Below, piece after piece: positions 1,468 to 37,092 of a DNA stretch of 38,518 nucleotides. Made by a program: the position numbers and the translations under genes. The notes under the pieces are model-generated. The model worked only from the letters and a program-made list of their open reading frames with translations, was not told the origin of the DNA and searched no databases. Positions within the stretch are counted from its first letter, which is position 1, and every line of letters starts with the position of its first letter. The stretch lies in the IMG/VR virus record IMGVR_UViG_2671181134_000015. One strand, 5' to 3'. Source of the stretch: a virus (lineage: Duplodnaviria; Heunggongvirae; Uroviricota; Caudoviricetes).

Positions 1468-1835
1468 GGTGCTACTTTCGACCGAACCTTTGGCAACCGG
1501 ATAGCGGGGGCTTTCACCCCCGCTGCGGTTTCTTACGGTTTACACTGCAAGAACGCCGCAAATTCTGACCACATGATGTTAAGTCTGAACTCACACGGCG
1601 AACGGTGTATCATCCAGACTGTCAACAACATGGTTAAGCATAAAATGCTCACGATGATCGTTTTTTGCGGCATAGCGCTTGCTCCTTTTTCAAAGAGGCG
1701 CTAACCTTCCACTTGCGAAGGTTAGATGGTTAGGGCCTCGGGTTAAACAAATGTTTGACTCGGGGCCTTTTCACATCCGGCCTTCAGGTAATCCTTCCAG
1801 CCGTCAGCCGAAAGGCACCCACGTGTAATCTACTG
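1468..1835. repeat. Direct repeat copy A (about 370 bp) carrying a hok-type locus
   Basis: Aligns by eye with 1942-2312 at about 470-bp offset; near-identical across the toxin ORF and more divergent in the leader region upstream of it. Confidence 0.8.
1533..1673 (-). CDS. Hok/Gef-family type I toxin, copy A (46 aa)
   Basis: Minus-strand ORF MPQKTIIVSILCLTMLLTVWMIHRSPCEFRLNIMWSEFAAFLQCKP: N-terminal transmembrane helix, then CEFR and EFAAF resembling the Hok CEIR and EVAAF signatures; GGAG 8 nt upstream of ATG; below the 60-aa cutoff of the ORF track. Confidence 0.6.
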   Translation of the reverse strand: MPQKTIIVSILCLTMLLTVWMIHRSPCEFRLNIMWSEFAAFLQCKP

Positions 1836-1889
1836 ATTTCCCTTTGTGCGCGCAATGCTCAGTGTTGAAACTGTTTAGGGGGGGGCGGC

Positions 1890-1912
1890 AAAAAAGCCCG
1901 CATATTGCGGGC
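1890..1912 (-). terminator. Intrinsic terminator for minus-strand transcripts (hok copy B)
   Basis: GCCCGCA-TAT-TGCGGGC hairpin at 1896-1912 preceded on + strand by A6 (1890-1895), i.e. hairpin followed by U6 on the minus strand. Confidence 0.6.
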
Positions 1913-1941: not shown

Positions 1942-2312
1942 GGTGCCATATCGACTGAACCCGACAACCGGATAGCGGGGCCGTTCACCCCCGCTGCGGT
2001 TTCTTACTGTTTACACTGCAAGAACGCCGCAAATTCTGACCACATGATGTTAAGTCTGAACTCACACGGCGAACGGTGTATCATCCAGATGGCCAACAAC
2101 ATGGTTAAGCATAAAATGCTCACGATGATCGTTTTTTGCGGCATAGCGCTTGACTCCTTTTACAGGGAGGCGCTAACCTTCCACTTGTCTAGGGTAGGAA
2201 TGGTTAGGGCCTCGGGTTAAACAATATGTTTGACTCGGGGCCTTTCCACATCCGGCCTTCAGGTTTTCCTTCCAGCCGTCAGCCGAAAGGCACCCGCGCG
2301 TAATGTACTGGT
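1942..2312. repeat. Direct repeat copy B carrying the second hok-type locus; right end overlaps the 3' end of ogr
   Basis: Aligns with 1468-1835; see copy A. Confidence 0.8.
2004..2144 (-). CDS. Hok/Gef-family type I toxin, copy B (46 aa)
   Basis: MPQKTIIVSILCLTMLLAIWMIHRSPCEFRLNIMWSEFAAFLQCKQ; intact frame, 3 amino-acid differences from copy A; GGAG upstream. Confidence 0.6.
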   Translation of the reverse strand: MPQKTIIVSILCLTMLLAIWMIHRSPCEFRLNIMWSEFAAFLQCKQ

Positions 2313-2581
2313 TTTAAAGTCATACCGCAATCCTCCAGTTGTAGCGTTAACTGACTGCGTCCCTGATGGGATTTGCGCATTGTCTCCCGTGGAATATCTT
2401 TATCGTGGAAGATCAACTGAGGCTGGCCAATAATTCTGTGCACACTTTCCATTGTTGAAAATGTGGCGCTGCACTCAAGGTTATTGCACTGATAGTATTT
2501 GTAGCGGATGGTGCCGGTATCATTGGCGGCTTTACTGGTACGGATCCGGGCAGATGCGCCGCAGAATGGACAATGAAACAT
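2279..2581 (-). CDS. ogr: Ogr/Delta-type zinc-finger late-gene transcriptional activator
   Basis: MFHCPFCG...YYQCNNLECSATF four-Cys zinc finger as in P2 Ogr; start taken at MFHCP (ORF track extends 17 codons further upstream); about 28 aa longer at the C-terminus than P2 Ogr. Confidence 0.8.
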   Translation of the reverse strand: MFHCPFCGASARIRTSKAANDTGTIRYKYYQCNNLECSATFSTMESVHRIIGQPQLIFHDKDIPRETMRKSHQGRSQLTLQLEDCGMTLKPVHYARVPFG

Positions 2582-22457: not shown

Positions 22458-24191
22458 ATGATCCAGGATGTCTTTATTCGTATGCGGGCGAAACAGCTTT
22501 ACTGGCAGGGGTATACCCCGGCGGATATCGCTCAGCTGATGGGAATAAACCAGAACACGATTTATTCGTGGAAAAAACGCGATGAGTGGGATGCCACCCC
22601 CCCGATCCAGCGGGTCACCCAGTCCATTGATGCACGCCTGATACAGCTCACCGCCAAACCGGATAAAAGCGGCGGTGACTTTAAGGAAATTGACCTGCTG
22701 ACGCGCCAGCTGAAAAAACTGAATGACGGTCAGGGAGAACAGGCTGTTTCCGGTAAGAAGCCCCGCAGGCGCAAACTGAAAAATCACTTCACCGAAGAGC
22801 AGATTGTCGCACTCAGGGAAAAAATCCTGCCGTCACTGGCCTGGCATCAGCGCGAATGGTACGACAACCGCCATCACCGCAACCGCATGATCCTGAAGTC
22901 GCGTCAGATTGGTGCGACCTGGTATTTTGCGCGCGAAGCACTCCTTGATGCACTGCGTGATGATGTCTCCGCCGGGTACCAGCGCAACCAGATATTTTTG
23001 TCCGCATCCCGTCGCCAGGCGTATCAGTTCAAACACTTTATTCAGCAGGCGGCGCTGGAAGTTGATGTCGAACTGAAAGGGGGTGACAAGATTGTTTTGT
23101 CTAACGGTGCAGAGCTTCACTTCCTTGGCACATCGGCAGCAACCGCTCAGTCGTATACCGGACACCTTAAATTTGATGAATTTTTCTGGGTCAGTAATTT
23201 TGTGCAGTTGCGAAAGGTGGCTGGCGCAATGGCAACCCTGAAAGGCCTTACCCGTACCTACTTTTCAACGCCATCGGGTGAAACGCATGAAGCTTATCAG
23301 TTCTGGACGGGGGATCGCTGGAACAGTGAGCGTCCCCGCTCAAAACGCACTGAATTCGATGTGTCTCATTCGAACCTGAAAGGGGGCGTGCTCTTCCCGG
23401 ATAAAACATGGCGGCAGATTGTCACCATTGAGGATGCAGTCGCGAACGGGTGGGAATATACGAGCATTGACGATATCCGGGATGAAAACACCGAAAGCGA
23501 ATTTCGTAACCTGTACATGTGCGAGTTCGTGCGTGATGGCGAGGCGGCGTTCAGTCTGAATGCGCTGATCGGCTGTGGTGTGGATGGATACGACGAATGG
23601 CCTGACTGGAAACCTTTTGCTGCGCGTCCGATGGGCGTGCGGGAAGTCTGGCTCGGGTACGACGCCAACGGCAGCAGCGGGAAGGGGGACTGCGGGGCGC
23701 TGTCGGTCTGCGTACCTCCACGGGTTACAGGCGGTCGTTTTCGTACCGTGGAGACGGTCAGGGTGCAGGGTATGGAGTTTGAACAGCAGGCGGCCCTGAT
23801 TGAGGAATACACCCAAAAATATAACGTGAAACATATCGGCATTGATGTGACCGGCGGGAACGGGGAGGGGGTTTATCAGATTGTGAAAAAGTTTTTCCCG
23901 ATGGCCGTACCGTACAACTTCAATATCGCCTCCAAGCGGGCACTGGTCATGAAAATGCTTCAGGTGGTGCGTGCCGGACGCTGGGAGTATGACCGCAGTG
24001 AACGTGACCTGATCCAGGCATTCGCATCGGTGCGAAAAATACAGACACCCGGCGGCTATATCACCTATGACACCGACCGCTCCCGCGGTGTGAGTCATGG
24101 GGATCTTGCCTGGGCAACCATGCTTGCTGTTATCAATGAGCCAATTGGTGCGGAGCGTGAGGATAATCGCGGCTTTGCAATGGAGTTCTGA
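22458..24191 (+). CDS. Terminase large (ATPase) subunit gpP-like
   Basis: N-terminal HTH LYWQGYTPADIAQLMGINQNTIYSWKK typical of gpP; about 577 aa from MIQDV with AGGGGG RBS; the ORF track begins at a GTG at 22353 that lies inside the promoter region. Confidence 0.85.
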   Translation: MIQDVFIRMRAKQLYWQGYTPADIAQLMGINQNTIYSWKKRDEWDATPPIQRVTQSIDARLIQLTAKPDKSGGDFKEIDLLTRQLKKLNDGQGEQAVSGKKPRRRKLKNHFTEEQIVALREKILPSLAWHQREWYDNRHHRNRMILKSRQIGATWYFAREALLDALRDDVSAGYQRNQIFLSASRRQAYQFKHFIQQAALEVDVELKGGDKIVLSNGAELHFLGTSAATAQSYTGHLKFDEFFWVSNFVQLRKVAGAMATLKGLTRTYFSTPSGETHEAYQFWTGDRWNSERPRSKRTEFDVSHSNLKGGVLFPDKTWRQIVTIEDAVANGWEYTSIDDIRDENTESEFRNLYMCEFVRDGEAAFSLNALIGCGVDGYDEWPDWKPFAARPMGVREVWLGYDANGSSGKGDCGALSVCVPPRVTGGRFRTVETVRVQGMEFEQQAALIEEYTQKYNVKHIGIDVTGGNGEGVYQIVKKFFPMAVPYNFNIASKRALVMKMLQVVRAGRWEYDRSERDLIQAFASVRKIQTPGGYITYDTDRSRGVSHGDLAWATMLAVINEPIGAEREDNRGFAMEF

Positions 24192-30893: not shown

Positions 30894-31306
30894 GCGTCGC
30901 ACTCCCCGGCAGTCGCCGCCTGAAACGCCGCGCGGTACAGCATGAGAAGGCGCTGGTATTCGCCGATAAAACCTTCTGCGGTGTATATACCTTTCACGGC
31001 CACGCTGTGGTTTGTCATTTCCAGAACCAGCGCCATCTCTGATGACGACCAGCTGATGGTGGTGCTGTCGGTGCCGTTGATGTGAAATAAACCCAGTCCA
31101 TCACCATCACCTTTCACGTCCACGCGGTAACGACCGTCAACGGTGAAGGAGAAATCCCCGGATGTGGTGATGCTGCGGGCAGCCTGTTTACAGGCGCGGC
31201 GGTAATAGTCGTGCCAGTCGTTCAGGCGGGAAGCCAGCCGGGGATCCACTGCCCACATCCAGTTAAAAAAATCCTGAATATCTGAAAGTCCCTTAACGCT
31301 CTTCAT
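30890..31306 (-). CDS. Hypothetical protein immediately upstream of gpA
   Basis: 138-aa ORF translationally coupled to A. Confidence 0.45.
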   Translation of the reverse strand: MKSVKGLSDIQDFFNWMWAVDPRLASRLNDWHDYYRRACKQAARSITTSGDFSFTVDGRYRVDVKGDGDGLGLFHINGTDSTTISWSSSEMALVLEMTNHSVAVKGIYTAEGFIGEYQRLLMLYRAAFQAATAGECDA

Positions 31307-31374
31307 GAGAACCTCCGGTAACAGATGTGCGGAAGCCTCCCGCGTACGGGTGCGGGATGGCTTCAGGATGTTGT

Positions 31375-31602
31375 TTAGTGGTGGTGTTGCTGGTTGATAA
31401 GGTCCTGCAGCTCCGCGAGATCATCCGCCAGGTAGCTGAAAACAGCGGCACAGTAACGGTTTGACAGAGCGTGAGTGCGCTCATGCAGCATGTTGATATG
31501 CATGATTTGCGCGACGCGTGTTGCGCGGAAAAGTCTGCGGTTGATTTCAGTCTGGATGTGACGACGCTCAGCGCGGGCGCGCTGTTGCTTGCGGTTTGCC
31601 AT
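31375..31602 (-). CDS. Hypothetical small basic protein (75 aa)
   Basis: MANRKQQRARAERRH... arginine-rich N-terminus. Confidence 0.4.
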   Translation of the reverse strand: MANRKQQRARAERRHIQTEINRRLFRATRVAQIMHINMLHERTHALSNRYCAAVFSYLADDLAELQDLINQQHHH

Positions 31603-31985
31603 GGTGTGGCCTCTTCGTTTGTGAATTTTGAAAACTCACCAACCAGAGGTTCCAAGCTCAGGGTGGCGAGACGTACAGGGTTGGAACTACCGGCAAACGA
31701 AGAAACCGGCCCGACCGAAGTCGGCCCTGTACGCCCCGCCATAATTCTGATGCGAAAAAGACGTGGCGATACAGTACGCACAAAAAAACCGCTGGCGCGG
31801 CTGTGCGCTTCGTTTGTCAGCGGGGTTCCAATCCCGGCACCCGTTTTATGAGGTGCAGCGGAAATGTAACCCGACACGACGAGCGCTGGCAAGCGGTTTT
31901 TGTGTTGCGTGCTGATGTGGTTAGAATGTGGCGAATTAATATCACCTGGCAACTGGTGATTGTCTGCATACGCGGGGTGTTTCTG

Positions 31986-32450
31986 ATGAGTGATAAGCTC
32001 CCTTCTGATTACGACATTCTTTTTGACCTGTGGTACAGCTACTGGCTTGAACGTATTACATGTGTGTTTCACCGACGCGTTTCTGCTGCTCTGCGAATCA
32101 GCGCCTTTCTGGTTGGTGTTGCGGCGTTTGTCCTGTGTGATTTTGTTGTGTTGGTACTCTTCAGTGTGGTTCTGTTTCTGCTCTGGCAGTGCATGGCTGC
32201 CAGTTTTGAACGCAGGGCTGAAAAGGCTGAATGGCAGACAGTCAGTTACCAGCGCCTTATCAGTCAGCGCCATGTGATTAGTAAGGAATGCATGATTGCG
32301 CGCCTCTCCTTTGTTGAGGAAAGTGACAGTCCCATCATGGAGTGCATGATTAATCTTGCCTGGAATAAAGCCTGTGAGGCGGTTGGCAGCTCTTCGCGCA
32401 ATCATGTTTCGTTCTCCGGTCGGTTACTCAGTCGCCTGTGCGGCTTCTGA
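31986..32450 (+). CDS. Putative membrane protein (about 154 aa) on the strand opposite the early operon; start uncertain
   Basis: Hydrophobic stretch ALRISAFLVGVAAFVLCDFVVLVLFSVVLFLLW; the antisense 370-aa ORF is low-complexity; overlaps the DUF4406-like gene 3' end by 27 nt. Confidence 0.3.
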   Translation: MSDKLPSDYDILFDLWYSYWLERITCVFHRRVSAALRISAFLVGVAAFVLCDFVVLVLFSVVLFLLWQCMAASFERRAEKAEWQTVSYQRLISQRHVISKECMIARLSFVEESDSPIMECMINLAWNKACEAVGSSSRNHVSFSGRLLSRLCGF

Positions 32451-32774
32451 CTGGCGAAGCAGCTGGGTGATGCTTTCACCGGCTGCCCTGTTTTCCGGGA
32501 ATGACACCGGCATGTTCAGCTTGCGTGCCATTGCGTACTCTGCCCGTGCGCCAGCTGACTCCGTCCAGCCTTCCAGTAAGTAAATGGCATCGGCACACAT
32601 GAGCATCGAAATACAAATGCTCATGTACTGCTGCTGGCTTAGTCCGTCCGGCAGTATGGCAGGGTTGAGTGCGGTGTATCCGGCTGACTTAAGCTTCATC
32701 GCCGCCATGGAAAACGCCGTTCTGTTGTGGTCTTTGTATCCGGTCATGGGACCGGCGATATAAATCACTGCCAT
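32424..32774 (-). CDS. DUF4406-like protein (nucleoside 2-deoxyribosyltransferase-like fold)
   Basis: N-terminal IYIAGPMTG signature. Confidence 0.55.
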   Translation of the reverse strand: MAVIYIAGPMTGYKDHNRTAFSMAAMKLKSAGYTALNPAILPDGLSQQQYMSICISMLMCADAIYLLEGWTESAGARAEYAMARKLNMPVSFPENRAAGESITQLLRQSEAAQATE

Positions 32775-32983
32775 GCTGTACCTCCCGTGTTGCGTGTTGC
32801 TGTCAGCACGCGTACTTCTTCCATGTTCGTGGCGCAGAAGTGCGAGCCGTTGATAAGGCGGATGTGATGCATCTCAGGATTGCGTGAGTCCTGGCGTGTC
32901 ATACCCGGGTCAATCAGGCTTTCGTCGACTTCGTACTGACGGCCGTTGGCTGTGAACCGGATAACGGTTGATTCCTGGATCAT
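32765..32983 (-). CDS. Hypothetical small protein (72 aa)
   Basis: ORF with start-stop overlap to neighbours. Confidence 0.4.
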   Translation of the reverse strand: MIQESTVIRFTANGRQYEVDESLIDPGMTRQDSRNPEMHHIRLINGSHFCATNMEEVRVLTATRNTGGTAWQ

Positions 32984-33252
32984 TGTTCGCCCCTTCCTCT
33001 CCGTTCCTTGTTTGCTGCGGTTTTAAGTGCCTCAATTTCCCGTTGCTGCTCCTCAATGATTTCAGCGGACCTGCTGGCAAGCATTGCCGTATAGCTGTGT
33101 CCAAGTGCCACAAATATCCCCGAATCCCGCTTCTCCACCGCCTCTCTTGCTTCCTGTTGTTTGATGCAGGCCAGATATCTCAGTGCTGAAACGACGATTG
33201 ATTGCTGCGTGCTTTTGTTATTCACCGGTTGACTCCTGTGTTGCTGATTCAT
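32980..33252 (-). CDS. Hypothetical small protein (about 90 aa)
   Basis: Start placed at MNQQ just downstream of the dam stop. Confidence 0.35.
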   Translation of the reverse strand: MNQQHRSQPVNNKSTQQSIVVSALRYLACIKQQEAREAVEKRDSGIFVALGHSYTAMLASRSAEIIEEQQREIEALKTAANKERRGRGEQ

Positions 33253-33260
33253 CTGGTTAT

Positions 33261-34235
33261 TCACGGGTGAGCAGAGGTAAACATCGCGCTGTACGTTGCA
33301 TCTCCCGTCGCCGGGCCGCAGTCCGGGCACCAGCCACCGCCATGGCGACCGCAGGTGTCGCACTGCTTCAGGGTGGCGATAACTTCCATTGCGGGTTCAC
33401 TGGTTCTTGCGCCAACGCTTCGTGGTGCCTGTATGCAGTTCATCCGGTAACCCTGATAAATGCGTCTGGTTTCCGGTGTGTCGGAATTGGAGATGGTGAT
33501 GCTGGTCATGCCGCCCGTTTCCTGTGAAAGGCGGTCAAGCGCTGCTCTCAGGCGAATGTGGTCGTCCTTCGTGAAGGGTTTTCCATAGGCGGTGAAATTG
33601 TCCCGGCCACTGAATGGCAGGTAAGGGGGATCGCAGTACACGCAAAGCGTGTTACCCATGCTGAACAGGTGGCTGGCACAGCTCAGCGTTTTTCGAAAAT
33701 CGCCATGAACAAGCAGTGTTCGGGTGCTGTTTGCCTTGTCTGCAAATGCGCGGATCTCCCGCTCAGGAAAATAATGTTTGCTGTAGCTGCCGAAAGGAAC
33801 GTTAAAATCGCCTTTTCCATTCACGCGGAACAGGCCGTTAAAACAGTGTCGGTTGAGGTACAAAAACATGGCGGCCAGTCGCAGTTTCCGACGGTCGCTT
33901 ATTCCCGTGCTCAGGAATGCATGATTCTCTGCATTAAAGGTGTTGCGGATGGCGAGATAGTCAGCCCTGTTGTTATGTTCCAGGAACAGGTCTTTTGCCT
34001 CATCGATCAGGCTGTCGGTGTTGTCCCGTGCTGCCCGCCAGAAATTAATCAGCGCACCGTTGGAATCTCCAAGGATGCAGCGGCTGTAACGGGTGTTCAT
34101 GAATACCGATGCGCCACCCACGAACGGCTCAACCAGGCAGTCAGCTTCTGGCAGGTGCGCCTTCAGTGTGTCCATGATGCGGTTTTTTCCGCCCACCCAT
34201 TTCAGCGGTGTGCCGGATAACAGTTTTTCGCTCAT
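33261..34235 (-). CDS. dam: DNA adenine methyltransferase (Dam / D12-class N6-adenine MTase) with Cys-rich C-terminal extension
   Basis: PFVGGASVF SAM-binding-like block and DPPY catalytic motif; C-terminal CDTCGRHGGGWCPDCGP cluster. Confidence 0.8.
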   Translation of the reverse strand: MSEKLLSGTPLKWVGGKNRIMDTLKAHLPEADCLVEPFVGGASVFMNTRYSRCILGDSNGALINFWRAARDNTDSLIDEAKDLFLEHNNRADYLAIRNTFNAENHAFLSTGISDRRKLRLAAMFLYLNRHCFNGLFRVNGKGDFNVPFGSYSKHYFPEREIRAFADKANSTRTLLVHGDFRKTLSCASHLFSMGNTLCVYCDPPYLPFSGRDNFTAYGKPFTKDDHIRLRAALDRLSQETGGMTSITISNSDTPETRRIYQGYRMNCIQAPRSVGARTSEPAMEVIATLKQCDTCGRHGGGWCPDCGPATGDATYSAMFTSAHP

Positions 34236-34469
34236 AACGCGGCCTCTCTGTTATAGGTTTCGTGCGTTAATAAATCCCATGACTTCCCGTTGTTTTTGCT
34301 CAGTAATCGCCAGCGAAAACCGATTCTTATGACCAGGTAGTCGTGGGGCTTTATGCGTGAAAAATTCCGCGCTCCGTTGCGAAATAAGCGCAGAGACGTG
34401 CGGGCTTTTGTTTCCACGTTCAGGGGGGGGGCGGCAACACACATTCAGGATGGCGACCATGGCTTCACC

Positions 34470-35060
34470 TCATATGTTCAGGAATGGTGTTGTGAAGCGC
34501 TGCCAGATTTCTGACACGACCTTTGCCTGGTAAACGGCATCGCCCAGTGCAGTGTGAGCAATAGCCTCCTTTCCTGATCTGCCTGGCATTTTCCATCCCG
34601 TTGACTCAGCCATGGCGATAAGCGGGCGCATACAGCGCTCGTTCCAGTAGCACCACGGAATGCTTTTTTCTCCGGCTGTGCGTGTTATGGCGGATTTCAG
34701 GATCGGGAAATCGAAGGATGCGCCCTTGCACCATATGGTCAGTGAATTGCCCGGGCTTTCGTCATGCATGTTGCGTGAAATGAACGCCAGAAATTCGGTT
34801 ACTGCCGCAAGCTCTGTTCCCTCTGCGTTGCGCAGGCAGGATCTGGCCTCCACGGATTGTCCGGCCCACCATACAGTGGTTGCTGCATTGACGGTTCCGC
34901 CGTTGCGTTCTGAATCCACCGGGTCGATGAATTGCTCAAACTGCTTGCCCAGCTTTCCGGTGAACGGGTCGAAAAACACCGCGCCAATTGCGAATATGAC
35001 GGCATCCGGTCCGGAGCCCAGTGTTTCAGTGTCAATCATGAGATGGTTCATTATGCGCAC
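34470..35060 (-). CDS. DnaQ-like 3'-5' exonuclease (DEDD family)
   Basis: MIDTETLG Exo I motif near the N-terminus, later H...D block. Confidence 0.7.
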   Translation of the reverse strand: MRIMNHLMIDTETLGSGPDAVIFAIGAVFFDPFTGKLGKQFEQFIDPVDSERNGGTVNAATTVWWAGQSVEARSCLRNAEGTELAAVTEFLAFISRNMHDESPGNSLTIWCKGASFDFPILKSAITRTAGEKSIPWCYWNERCMRPLIAMAESTGWKMPGRSGKEAIAHTALGDAVYQAKVVSEIWQRFTTPFLNI

Positions 35061-35281
35061 CCCTTCAGTTCGTCTGGGTTGGCGAGTATTGCAATCAGTC
35101 GTTCAATGGCTGCGCAGGTTTCCTGTGGACAGGTGTGTGTCTCTTTCGCTGTCTCAGTCAGCTCGCGCAGTAATTCGCAGATATGTGCACGCTCGGCTTT
35201 TCTTGCGGCCATGCTGATATGCGCATGATGGTTAGCTGGTCTGGCGGTTATTTCTCTGCCGGGTGATTCGGCTGTTCTCAT
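35051..35281 (-). CDS. Hypothetical small protein (76 aa)
   Basis: Start at MRTAE with GGAG RBS; the ORF track extends further upstream through a hairpin. Confidence 0.35.
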   Translation of the reverse strand: MRTAESPGREITARPANHHAHISMAARKAERAHICELLRELTETAKETHTCPQETCAAIERLIAILANPDELKGCA

Positions 35282-35387
35282 TTGTTGACTCCTGAAAAAA
35301 AGACAAAGGGAACCCGAAGGCATGAATGCCTTAATTAATTGCTCGTGTGTTTTCTGGTGTTATTCCGCGCCTGCTTTCGGCTTCAGG

Positions 35388-35483
35388 TTATTCCCAGATC
35401 TTCAGGGCTAACCAGATAAGCGCACTCACCTGAAATATCACCCATACAGTGGCGATGGTGTGTATTGCTTTTACATTCTTCAT
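35388..35483 (-). CDS. Small hydrophobic peptide (31 aa), unannotatable from sequence
   Basis: MKNVKAIHTIATVWVIFQVSALIWLALKIWE; no clear RBS; 12 nt after the preceding small ORF. Confidence 0.25.
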   Translation of the reverse strand: MKNVKAIHTIATVWVIFQVSALIWLALKIWE

Positions 35484-35495
35484 AAGGTTTTCGCT

Positions 35496-35621
35496 TTATT
35501 TACGGCGTTTATCGCCGGTAAAGAATAATTCGATATCCTTCAGTGTGTAGATAATTCGCATAATGCCGATTGCCATAAGCACGGAGATAATCAGAATTAC
35601 CCATGAAAGAAATATGCTCAT
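35496..35621 (-). CDS. Small hydrophobic peptide (41 aa)
   Basis: MSIFLSWVILIISVLMAIGIMRIIYTLKDIELFFTGDKRRK; ATGA overlap with the upstream gene. Confidence 0.3.
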   Translation of the reverse strand: MSIFLSWVILIISVLMAIGIMRIIYTLKDIELFFTGDKRRK

Positions 35622-35860
35622 GCGGCTACCCCTGTGAAGTAAGGCTCAACAATTTCACCTTCAAACAGTTCTGTCATAATCGACTTTAATTCTTCCAGCG
35701 CTTCACGGTCATCGCTGCCCAGTGCGCAGTTGTATAGCCCCATAATTGCGCCGCGCAGTGAGTTACGAAGGCTTTCATCCTTAGTTACGCCCCGGTTTGC
35801 GAGTTCAAAGTGATAACGTTGCAACGCGTTATTGATAAGTATTTTGTAGGCTTCGATCAT
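35618..35860 (-). CDS. Hypothetical early protein (80 aa)
   Basis: ORF in the early operon. Confidence 0.45.
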   Translation of the reverse strand: MIEAYKILINNALQRYHFELANRGVTKDESLRNSLRGAIMGLYNCALGSDDREALEELKSIMTELFEGEIVEPYFTGVAA

Positions 35861-35878
35861 GGCTGAATCCTTTATTTA

Positions 35879-36214
35879 TCAGTGCTTGCTTCCCGGATAT
35901 TGAAAACGCAGGCCGCTGATTAATCTGTCTGCCGTTCTTAAGGCTTCAAAAAATGTGAAGTCCTGTCCGAAGTAATCATCCCCGCGAGTCAGGGTGAAAT
36001 TAAATCTGCCAGTAACAGGGCTGCGAAAACTTTTGTGAATAACGATGCCAGTGTCGCCAATCGTCCAGGTGTGCTTGCCGGTTTGTTTTACCGGGTGACC
36101 GTCTGGTGTGGTATGGATTTCAGTGGTTGCGGTCGCACTATTTTTACGGAAGTGCTGGCGTGCAACGTGGCGTTCGGTGTTGTTATTGATGCGTGCATTT
36201 CGTTGTTGCTTCAT
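35879..36214 (-). CDS. Hypothetical early protein (111 aa)
   Basis: ORF in the early operon. Confidence 0.45.
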   Translation of the reverse strand: MKQQRNARINNNTERHVARQHFRKNSATATTEIHTTPDGHPVKQTGKHTWTIGDTGIVIHKSFRSPVTGRFNFTLTRGDDYFGQDFTFFEALRTADRLISGLRFQYPGSKH

Positions 36215-36239
36215 TCTTCACTCGGTCCTTATGCGATGA

Positions 36240-36434
36240 TTACAGTGATTCGTCTCTTGTCAGCCTAAAAATCACTTCAGCCATGACTTCGCTAATTACA
36301 TCGATCCCCTGATCGGTAAGGGCTTCTTTCCAGGCCTTGCTTGCACGTGTTGGATCCATCCTGCCTGATTGCTGTTGTATGATGATGAAGCGTAAATCGC
36401 TGTATAAGTCTTTTGTTTGAGTGGAGTCAGTCAT
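36240..36434 (-). CDS. Hypothetical early protein (64 aa)
   Basis: ORF in the early operon. Confidence 0.4.
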   Translation of the reverse strand: MTDSTQTKDLYSDLRFIIIQQQSGRMDPTRASKAWKEALTDQGIDVISEVMAEVIFRLTRDESL

Positions 36435-36485
36435 GTCAACACCTTCAAATCCCGATGCTCTTAATGATCCCGGTTTGTTTTGATG

Positions 36486-37010
36486 TCACTGGTTGCCTTC
36501 GCTGTATTGGTGTTGCTCCAGTTTTGACTTTCTTCCTGTGTAAACCCGCTTTCCATTGATGGTCTGGCAGTCTTCTTTGTTTGCCGGGGAAAACTTTCTT
36601 TTCTGTCGGTCGTACGTCCAGTAGCTTTTCCAGTTGTGCCATTCTGGCGGCTCGCATTCTGGTAGTTCGTCAGCCAGCTTGTCCCACTCTCTGGCGTTAA
36701 ACCACCATACGCCATCCGAATTTTCATCTTCAGGGTTTGAACGGGTCTTGTGTCCAGGCATCTGATTTCGCTGAAGCGCCACGCGCAATGCAGCTTTTGT
36801 CAACCCGATATAGGCTGCCCCTTTTTCAAGTGAGCAAAGTCCGGCTACCGGGCCATCCAGTCGCAAGGTTGCCCCTTTTTTGTAGGTGCGTTTTTTCTTT
36901 TCCTCTTGGTGTTCATCGTCGTTTTCCGCACCAACGGATTCGGTGATGCTGTCGTTTTCCTGAAGGGCTTGTGTGTCAGATAACTCTTTATCGGCAATTG
37001 ACTTCCGCAT
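36486..37010 (-). CDS. Cox/Apl-like excisionase-regulator candidate (first gene of the early operon; N-terminal extent uncertain)
   Basis: Divergent from the repressor gene; HTH-like YIGLTKAALRVALQRNQMPGHKT and W-rich block DGVWWFNAREWDKL resemble P2 Cox; the acidic N-terminal 50 aa may not be translated. Confidence 0.45.
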   Translation of the reverse strand: MRKSIADKELSDTQALQENDSITESVGAENDDEHQEEKKKRTYKKGATLRLDGPVAGLCSLEKGAAYIGLTKAALRVALQRNQMPGHKTRSNPEDENSDGVWWFNAREWDKLADELPECEPPEWHNWKSYWTYDRQKRKFSPANKEDCQTINGKRVYTGRKSKLEQHQYSEGNQ

Positions 37011-37072
37011 TTGCTATCCTCTTGCGTTGGTGCGCTTGTCGCGCATCATGAAGGTTTGTTTAGGTTTATAAA

Positions 37073-37092
37073 AGATACTCGTGCGAGTATCT
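37073..37092. promoter_or_regulatory. Perfect 9-bp inverted repeat AGATACTCG-TG-CGAGTATCT in the cox/C divergent region; candidate operator
   Basis: Lies between the divergent starts at 37010 and 37115; a second palindrome TGCGC-N5-GCGCA is at 37031-37045 and TATAAA at 37067-37072. Confidence 0.4.

Follow-up and report, generated by a model that had tools for sequence, protein, structure and literature searches.

The two long G-runs of this prophage, eight bases in a non-coding spacer of a tandem hok/sok array (site 1) and nine bases within a small early gene (site 2), are most probably independent homopolymers whose flanks resemble each other by coincidence, with site 2 acting as a neutral slippage hot spot. 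The window, which is the whole stretch of 38,518 nucleotides that was analysed, starts with the 3' end of E. coli serS (1-1293), and a P2-like prophage fills the rest of it up to the integrase stop codon at 38518. Its sequence at site 2 is contained, letter for letter, in contig LOGR01000080.1 of assembly GCA_001608165.1.

The shared G-run motif and its expectation by chance

The initial annotation had described one motif at two distant positions. The sequence bears out its G8 run at 1878-1885, but the second run, which had been placed at 34413-34421, lies 10 nt higher, as a G9 at 34423-34431; the strings that were quoted for the two sites map to 1865-1891 and 34410-34437. These are the only runs of G8 or longer in the window, and there is no third copy. 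The common pattern is also present as described, with GTT-N-A before the run and CGGCAA after it (GTTTA-G8-CGGCAA at site 1 and GTTCA-G9-CGGCAA at site 2), and the longest exact string common to both sites is 14 nt, G8CGGCAA, with homology ending at the motif edges.

A blastn-short comparison of a 65-nt query with the one window gave the 14-mer an E value of 0.007. Once hokB is left out, 8 direct 14-mer pairs remain in the window, against 2.9 ± 1.7 in Markov simulations. Matches of G8, of which three were observed, were reached by 21 of 100 shuffles and are thus not unusual. The case for more than chance is weakened, too, by the five occurrences of GGCGGCAA against 1.2 expected, an over-representation of about 4-fold, and by the A that directly precedes 29 of the 54 runs of five or more G. 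Had the pair of sites been specified beforehand, the match of both flanks (GTT-N-A and CGGCAA) would be improbable, about 1e-5 by our own estimate, so the case for coincidence leans on the observation being post hoc and on the comparative data.

Independent variation of the two sites

Across related phages the two sites vary independently of each other. The states of site 1 and site 2 are G8 and G9 in the window, G8 and G8 in STEC17-183, G5AG3 and G8 in SCU-106, G5AG3 and G9 in LZSFT34, G5AG3 and G7 in both KY203 and KY208, and G4AGA and G7 in one IMG/VR contig. The features that make the match are polymorphic on both sides, namely the unbroken run at site 1 and the CGG or CAG that follows the run at site 2, where the 3' flank in relatives reads either CGGCAA or CAGCAA. 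The shared form of the flanked motif is not conserved in related genomes, and the orthologues differ at exactly the positions that the two sites of the window have in common. The polymorphic matching features, the independent variation, the coding nature of site 2, the position of site 1 against a terminator and the lack of a third copy together argue that the likeness is coincidental.

It is highly improbable that a single short mobile or repeated element gave rise to both sites, or that one was templated from the other by gene conversion or within a recombination scar. Such a relationship would account for the agreement of 18 of 19 flank-plus-run positions, allowing one base of run length, and for an inverted 11-mer, AAAAGCCCGCA, that is common with the hok terminator and adjoins site 2. 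It fits poorly with a motif of just two copies whose homology stops at its edges, with the absence of the shared form from the orthologous sites of relatives and with a site 2 that is coding sequence and evolves as such; an Rfam search of 1250-2450 around site 1 returned only sok matches and weak chance hits. The short repeated element that had been proposed was thus not upheld.

The recombination scar that had also been suggested fares no better. At about 1322-1340, away from both runs, the serS terminator CCTGCGGGCG(N)TTTTTG forms the att core, and its partner copy in STEC17-183 lies about 130 nt past the int stop, before dmsA, in the minus-strand reading. The spacer that holds site 1 is conserved across arrays at three integration sites, being the same in prophages at serS, at tRNA-Leu/pgsA and at prpB, and on these grounds an att-site origin of site 1 was rejected.

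The inverted 11-mer AAAAGCCCGCA occupies 34399-34409, 14 nt from the site 2 run, and corresponds to the first terminator arm of both hok genes (1410-1420 and 1891-1901). We considered it as a trace of a templated rearrangement and rejected this, as it encodes (Glu-)Thr-Lys-Ala-Arg of the site 2 gene product and most haplotypes read GAAAG...GCCCGCG; we judge it a second small coincidence.

Site 1 and its setting in a tandem hok/sok array

Beside serS the minus-strand order is hokA, hokB, ogr and gene D, and the features around site 1 are as follows.

1533-1673, minus strand: hokA, Hok/Gef family coding sequence (RefSeq annotation of the identical stretch of STEC17-183)
1804-1863, minus strand: ogr-like 3' remnant, encoding ...VPFG-stop, located between the two hok genes (aligned with the intact ogr genes of SW070917 and the window)
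1878-1885, no strand assigned: site 1 G8 run, C8 on the hok/ogr strand, non-coding (sequence)
1890-1912, minus strand: hokB intrinsic terminator, stem-loop GCCCGCAATATGCGGGC (1912-1896) followed by T6 (1895-1890) (terminator scan)
2004-2144, minus strand: hokB, Hok/Gef family coding sequence of the second tandem unit (annotation; Rfam sok match at 2133-2295)
2279-2581, minus strand: intact ogr/Delta-like zinc-finger gene of the prophage (annotation)

The prophage is a mosaic with respect to its nearest relatives. Its hok-ogr end (1300-2400) is 100% identical to STEC17-183, its early region (compared over 31000-38518) is only about 94.6% identical to that genome, and the closest relatives of the early region are KY177, KY179 and SCU-106 (97-98%).

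The run of site 1 is found 10 nt past the hokB terminator stem and 58 nt before the hokA sok-like region, and a scan of the intergenic spacer detected no promoter beside it. The terminator stem has seven pairs, six of them G-C, and its T6 is followed by GCCG and then by the C8 run. The hokA sok-like region (1663-1820) matches Rfam RF01794 with 48.3 bits and an E value of 1.9e-9, below the gathering score of 59. The two tandem units are evident from the match of 1467-1840 to 1941-2315, and the ogr-like remnant can be traced from its stop at 1804 to about 1863, where homology ends 14 nt before the run. We also tried to read the run as a relic of this remnant, with Leu-Pro-Leu codons, and discarded the idea because DNA homology falls 14 nt short and the peptide extension was matched by 283 of 1000 shuffles.

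Site 1 had been described as an insertion relative to the segment at copy A. What stands of this is that TTGAAAC and a 14-mer, the first terminator arm, are common to both copies; the 3' regions of hokA and hokB are otherwise non-homologous, and their terminators differ except for this 14-nt first arm. In the three-copy array of strain 154 the same spacer is present at both junctions, which indicates that the spacer is part of the repeated unit and not a locus-specific insertion.

Arrays in which two or three hok/sok modules repeat in tandem about every 471-474 bp, with an ogr 3'-end remnant in each internal unit, occur at the ogr/att end of P2-like prophages at three loci (serS, tRNA-Leu beside pgsA, and prpB), and single-copy versions exist too. 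A literature search found no paper on tandem hok arrays in P2-like phages. Site 1 resembles type I toxin-antitoxin cargo in its setting, between two Hok/Gef genes that each have a sok-like region and their own intrinsic terminator. Unlike the modules themselves, the run is outside every recognisable hok/sok element and varies freely among arrays, which carry anything from G4 to G8, interrupted or not.

Over the region 1300-2400, STEC17-183 is 100% identical to the window, and eight further genomes are 99.6% identical with one extra base. These eight read GTTTAGGGGGAGGGCGGCAAAAAAG at site 1, and the alignment places the extra base as an A that is missing from the window and STEC17-183. A distant search with the spacer recovered 22 genomes, with G8 in one, G5AG3 in nine and more diverged tandem-hok arrays making up the remainder; when read directly, the diverged arrays carry G5, G4 or G4AGA. 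In total, G5AG3 is present in 13 related sequences (nine RefSeq genomes, one IMG/VR contig and three metagenome contigs), and outside the window G8 is found only in STEC17-183. A pattern scan of IMG/VR and metagenome contigs that was open to any run length gave only G5AG3, G5 or G4AGA. Site 1 therefore shows G8 against interrupted or short forms and no stepwise length change of a long run, and its G8 probably arose from an ancestral G5AG3 by loss of the single A. We conclude that site 1 is a variable G-rich non-coding patch, of which G8 is a rare derived allele, and we infer that it is neutral.

Site 2 lies in a ParE_like gene between exonuclease and dam genes

The second run had been assigned to a proline stretch in a small ORF between an exonuclease gene and dam, and this proved correct. 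The features of this part of the early operon are given below, with the two reading frames that bear on its translation.

33261-34235, minus strand: Dam-family adenine methyltransferase, downstream (TIGR00571 E 4.5e-68, PF02086 E 4.3e-52)
34232-34460, minus strand: ParE_like small gene, frameshifted, 229 nt against 228 nt in G8 relatives (PF24732, PHROG 1525)
34232-34444, minus strand: 70-aa ORF of the ParE_like frame that begins at a second ATG (34444) without Shine-Dalgarno, the annotated form in the source assembly (WP_074433386.1)
34251-34460, minus strand: 69-aa out-of-frame ORF read from the Shine-Dalgarno-linked ATG in G9 (translation)
34423-34431, minus strand: site 2 run, C9 as read on the coding strand (G9 on the plus strand), codons 10-13 of ParE_like, the in-frame C8 plus one base (sequence)
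34470-35060, minus strand: 3'-5' exonuclease (Rv2179c-like), upstream, early operon (Pfam PF16473 E 8.4e-50)

ParE_like starts at the ATG at 34460-34458, 9 nt from the exonuclease gene, with a Shine-Dalgarno GAGGTG (34471-34466) at this gap; its codons 10-13 read Arg-Pro-Pro-Leu, and when the run is G8, its stop codon and the dam start share ATGA. The G8 reconstruction matches Pfam PF24732 with an E value of 6.7e-18 and a score of 64.9 bits (cut-off 24.4). It also matches PHROG 1525, annotated as 'unknown function', with an E value of 1.6e-27, and the RefSeq label of the orthologue is 'ParE family toxin-like protein'. Homologues of about 60% identity, almost all of exactly 75 aa, are found in Klebsiella, Salmonella, Enterobacter, Citrobacter and Pantoea, and the order exonuclease, ParE_like, dam is kept in the P2/186-like early operons of the Klebsiella and Salmonella loci examined. 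The homologues of this length and the kept gene order indicate that the 75-aa frame is the native one. The Klebsiella and Salmonella homologues lack any run (AGC GCA CCG CTG). Searches of a phage GenBank collection in near and distant modes gave no match to the site 2 region, a protein-based scan of GTDB representative genomes gave no relative, and a literature search found no paper on the gene, its family or its run.

The likeness of ParE_like to type II toxins of the ParE/RelE superfamily lies in its above-threshold match to PF24732 and, weakly, in its predicted fold. An AlphaFold2 model (pLDDT 86) is a small alpha/beta fold, whose best Foldseek neighbours in the PDB, YoeB, HigB and YafQ, come from this superfamily with weak scores (E 0.09-1, TM 0.34-0.58). 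Unlike these toxins, ParE_like has just 75 aa, gave no match to PDB sequences in a profile search, has fold matches that are weak (TM about 0.5) and has no adjacent antitoxin candidate in the window, where no ORF lies between it and dam. PADLOC gave no match for it.

Two further observations concern its neighbours. The Klebsiella and Salmonella operons have an extra 64-aa ORF between ParE_like and dam (2725-2919 of those loci), overlapping both neighbours, which has no Pfam match, is absent from the E. coli version and could be an antitoxin-like partner. The Dam protein carries a Cys-rich C-terminal extension, CDTCGRHGGGWCPDCG (33261-33400, residues about 279-324), with a weak match to part of an exodeoxyribonuclease VIII model (NF007259, E 2e-4).

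The site 2 run varies in length on identical flanks

Both runs had been described as prone to slippage, which is supported for site 2, where public assemblies contain runs of 6, 7, 8 and 9 as well as an interrupted allele, and not for site 1, with its interrupting A or short runs. The site 2 region is present in 27 of 5426 complete E. coli genomes in RefSeq. With run length taken from matched length, and read directly in 18 of the 27, these comprise 19 with G8, three with G9 (NCTC9112, LZSFT34 and STEC2018-607), three with G7 (KY208, MSB1_4I and KY203) and two with the interrupted form GGGTGGGG (2013C-3033 and KY176). Ten IMG/VR contigs divide into five with C8, three with C7 and two with C9. 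In the protein collection there are gene products that match runs of 6, 7, 8 and 9, and for one haplotype 200 contigs carry the 75-aa form and 89 the out-of-frame 69-aa one; C9 was confirmed in ten independent samples with the 69-aa form.

Four flank haplotypes, each identical over 100 nt on either side, carry two or three run lengths each, in a biased sample, as certain loci were chosen for retrieval by their allele. Over 625-829 nt, three contigs are separated from the window by two SNPs and a one-base change of the run. Several lengths on identical flanks indicate that the run slips repeatedly. On these alignments, the site 2 run slips recurrently and belongs to the E. coli lineage of ParE_like alone: a C-run in a conserved 75-aa early gene acts as a hot spot of replication slippage, with eight bases as the in-frame state.

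Homopolymers of 8-9 G are error-prone in sequencing, and the G9 of the window, perhaps with the G8 of site 1, could reflect a sequencing or assembly error, the more so as the source, LOGR01000080.1, is a draft contig and three near-identical contigs have C8. We consider this quite unlikely as an explanation, given that C9 and C7 recur in numerous independent assemblies and across pipelines (RefSeq complete genomes, IMG/VR, Logan assemblies of sequencing runs and ENA metagenomes), that the contig of the window is reported for three samples and that the window and STEC17-183, two genomes with 5% divergence between their early regions, both have the G8 of site 1. The G9 of this one contig could be an assembly error, which would leave the general picture unchanged.

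A C7 run in the terminase gene (22597-22603), at which the 60 listed genomes align without length change, was tried as a control for artefacts and set aside as uninformative, since the run is interrupted in the relatives. Two relatives that were read directly at this large-subunit gene carry ACTCCCCCG and ACACCTCCG; SCU-106 has ACT CCC where the window has ACC CCC, a single T-to-C difference that leaves the Thr codon unchanged.

Consequences of run length for translation

The consequences of run length for the reading frame were obtained by translation. With G8, the Shine-Dalgarno-linked ATG (34460) leads in frame into the 75-aa ParE_like protein. With G9, as in the window, the same ATG gives 69 aa, out of frame after codon 12 and ending at a stop at 34251, 15 nt before the dam ATG, and the ParE_like frame can be reached only from the ATG at 34444, which lacks a Shine-Dalgarno. 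With G7, the same ATG gives a 12-aa peptide with a TGA right after the run, and the ParE_like frame can be reached only via GTG or TTG starts, again without Shine-Dalgarno. In the window, ribosomes that start at the linked ATG would leave the ParE_like frame after codon 12, and ParE_like would be off, or made weakly from the second ATG. Expression of dam should survive G9, as the GAGAGG upstream of dam is its own.

The 69-aa product has no match in Pfam, NCBIfam or PHROG. In all haplotypes seen, the frame of the G9 state is open for 57 more codons, so that a 69-aa 'protein' is called on about 90 or more contigs; this open frame is probably meaningless, the chance probability of such an open stretch being about 0.07.

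A contingency switch or a neutral hot spot

Simple-sequence contingency loci, which change by Streisinger slippage, are known from the poly-G/C tracts of Campylobacter, Neisseria, Haemophilus and Bordetella. Site 2 shares with them a G:C run of 8-9 in the 5' coding region, uninterrupted and at least about seven bases long, and recurrent +1 and -1 frame-shifting alleles on identical backgrounds. The off-frame alleles are frequent, as in the haplotype with 89 against 200 contigs, and candidate starts are present upstream of the run in all three frames, so every run length could still yield some product. Site 2 might then be a selected contingency locus in a temperate E. coli phage, in which the run would be kept for its reversible slippage, a toxin-like early protein being ON with 8 bases and OFF with 7 or 9. 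If this were true, sibling prophages would differ in a lytic-cycle or host-interaction trait.

We regard such a switch as unlikely. Unlike contingency loci, site 2 lies in an early gene of an E. coli prophage, the run is absent in other genera, where the Klebsiella and Salmonella homologues keep their 75 aa without it, and a stabilised interrupted allele, CCCCACCC, is widespread in E. coli. Sets of clonal isolates are uniform by matched length (three SW0716, two UCPROB and three G strains, with a direct reading for G1/2 only), and the alternative starts have no Shine-Dalgarno. The location also weighs against selection for switching, as ParE_like belongs to the early operon and is opposite in direction to the repressor and integrase genes. 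The early operons of P2/186-type phages are repressed in lysogens, and frameshifts in ParE_like would thus be nearly neutral in a lysogen.

Significance of the site 2 run

Taken as a neutral hot spot, site 2 adds a new case to a very well known class of mutational hot spots, and the shared motif as it had been proposed is a coincidence of no importance. The gene affected, ParE_like (PHROG 1525), is a widespread 75-aa early gene of P2-like prophages, and in its E. coli lineage roughly one public copy in four to one in three has the C8 run out of frame. The changes in run length have led to five or more annotated lengths and start codons for ParE_like across pipelines, and these differences in annotated length should not be taken for distinct genes. 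The same alleles provide a natural on/off set for probing the function of this uncharacterised toxin-like protein.
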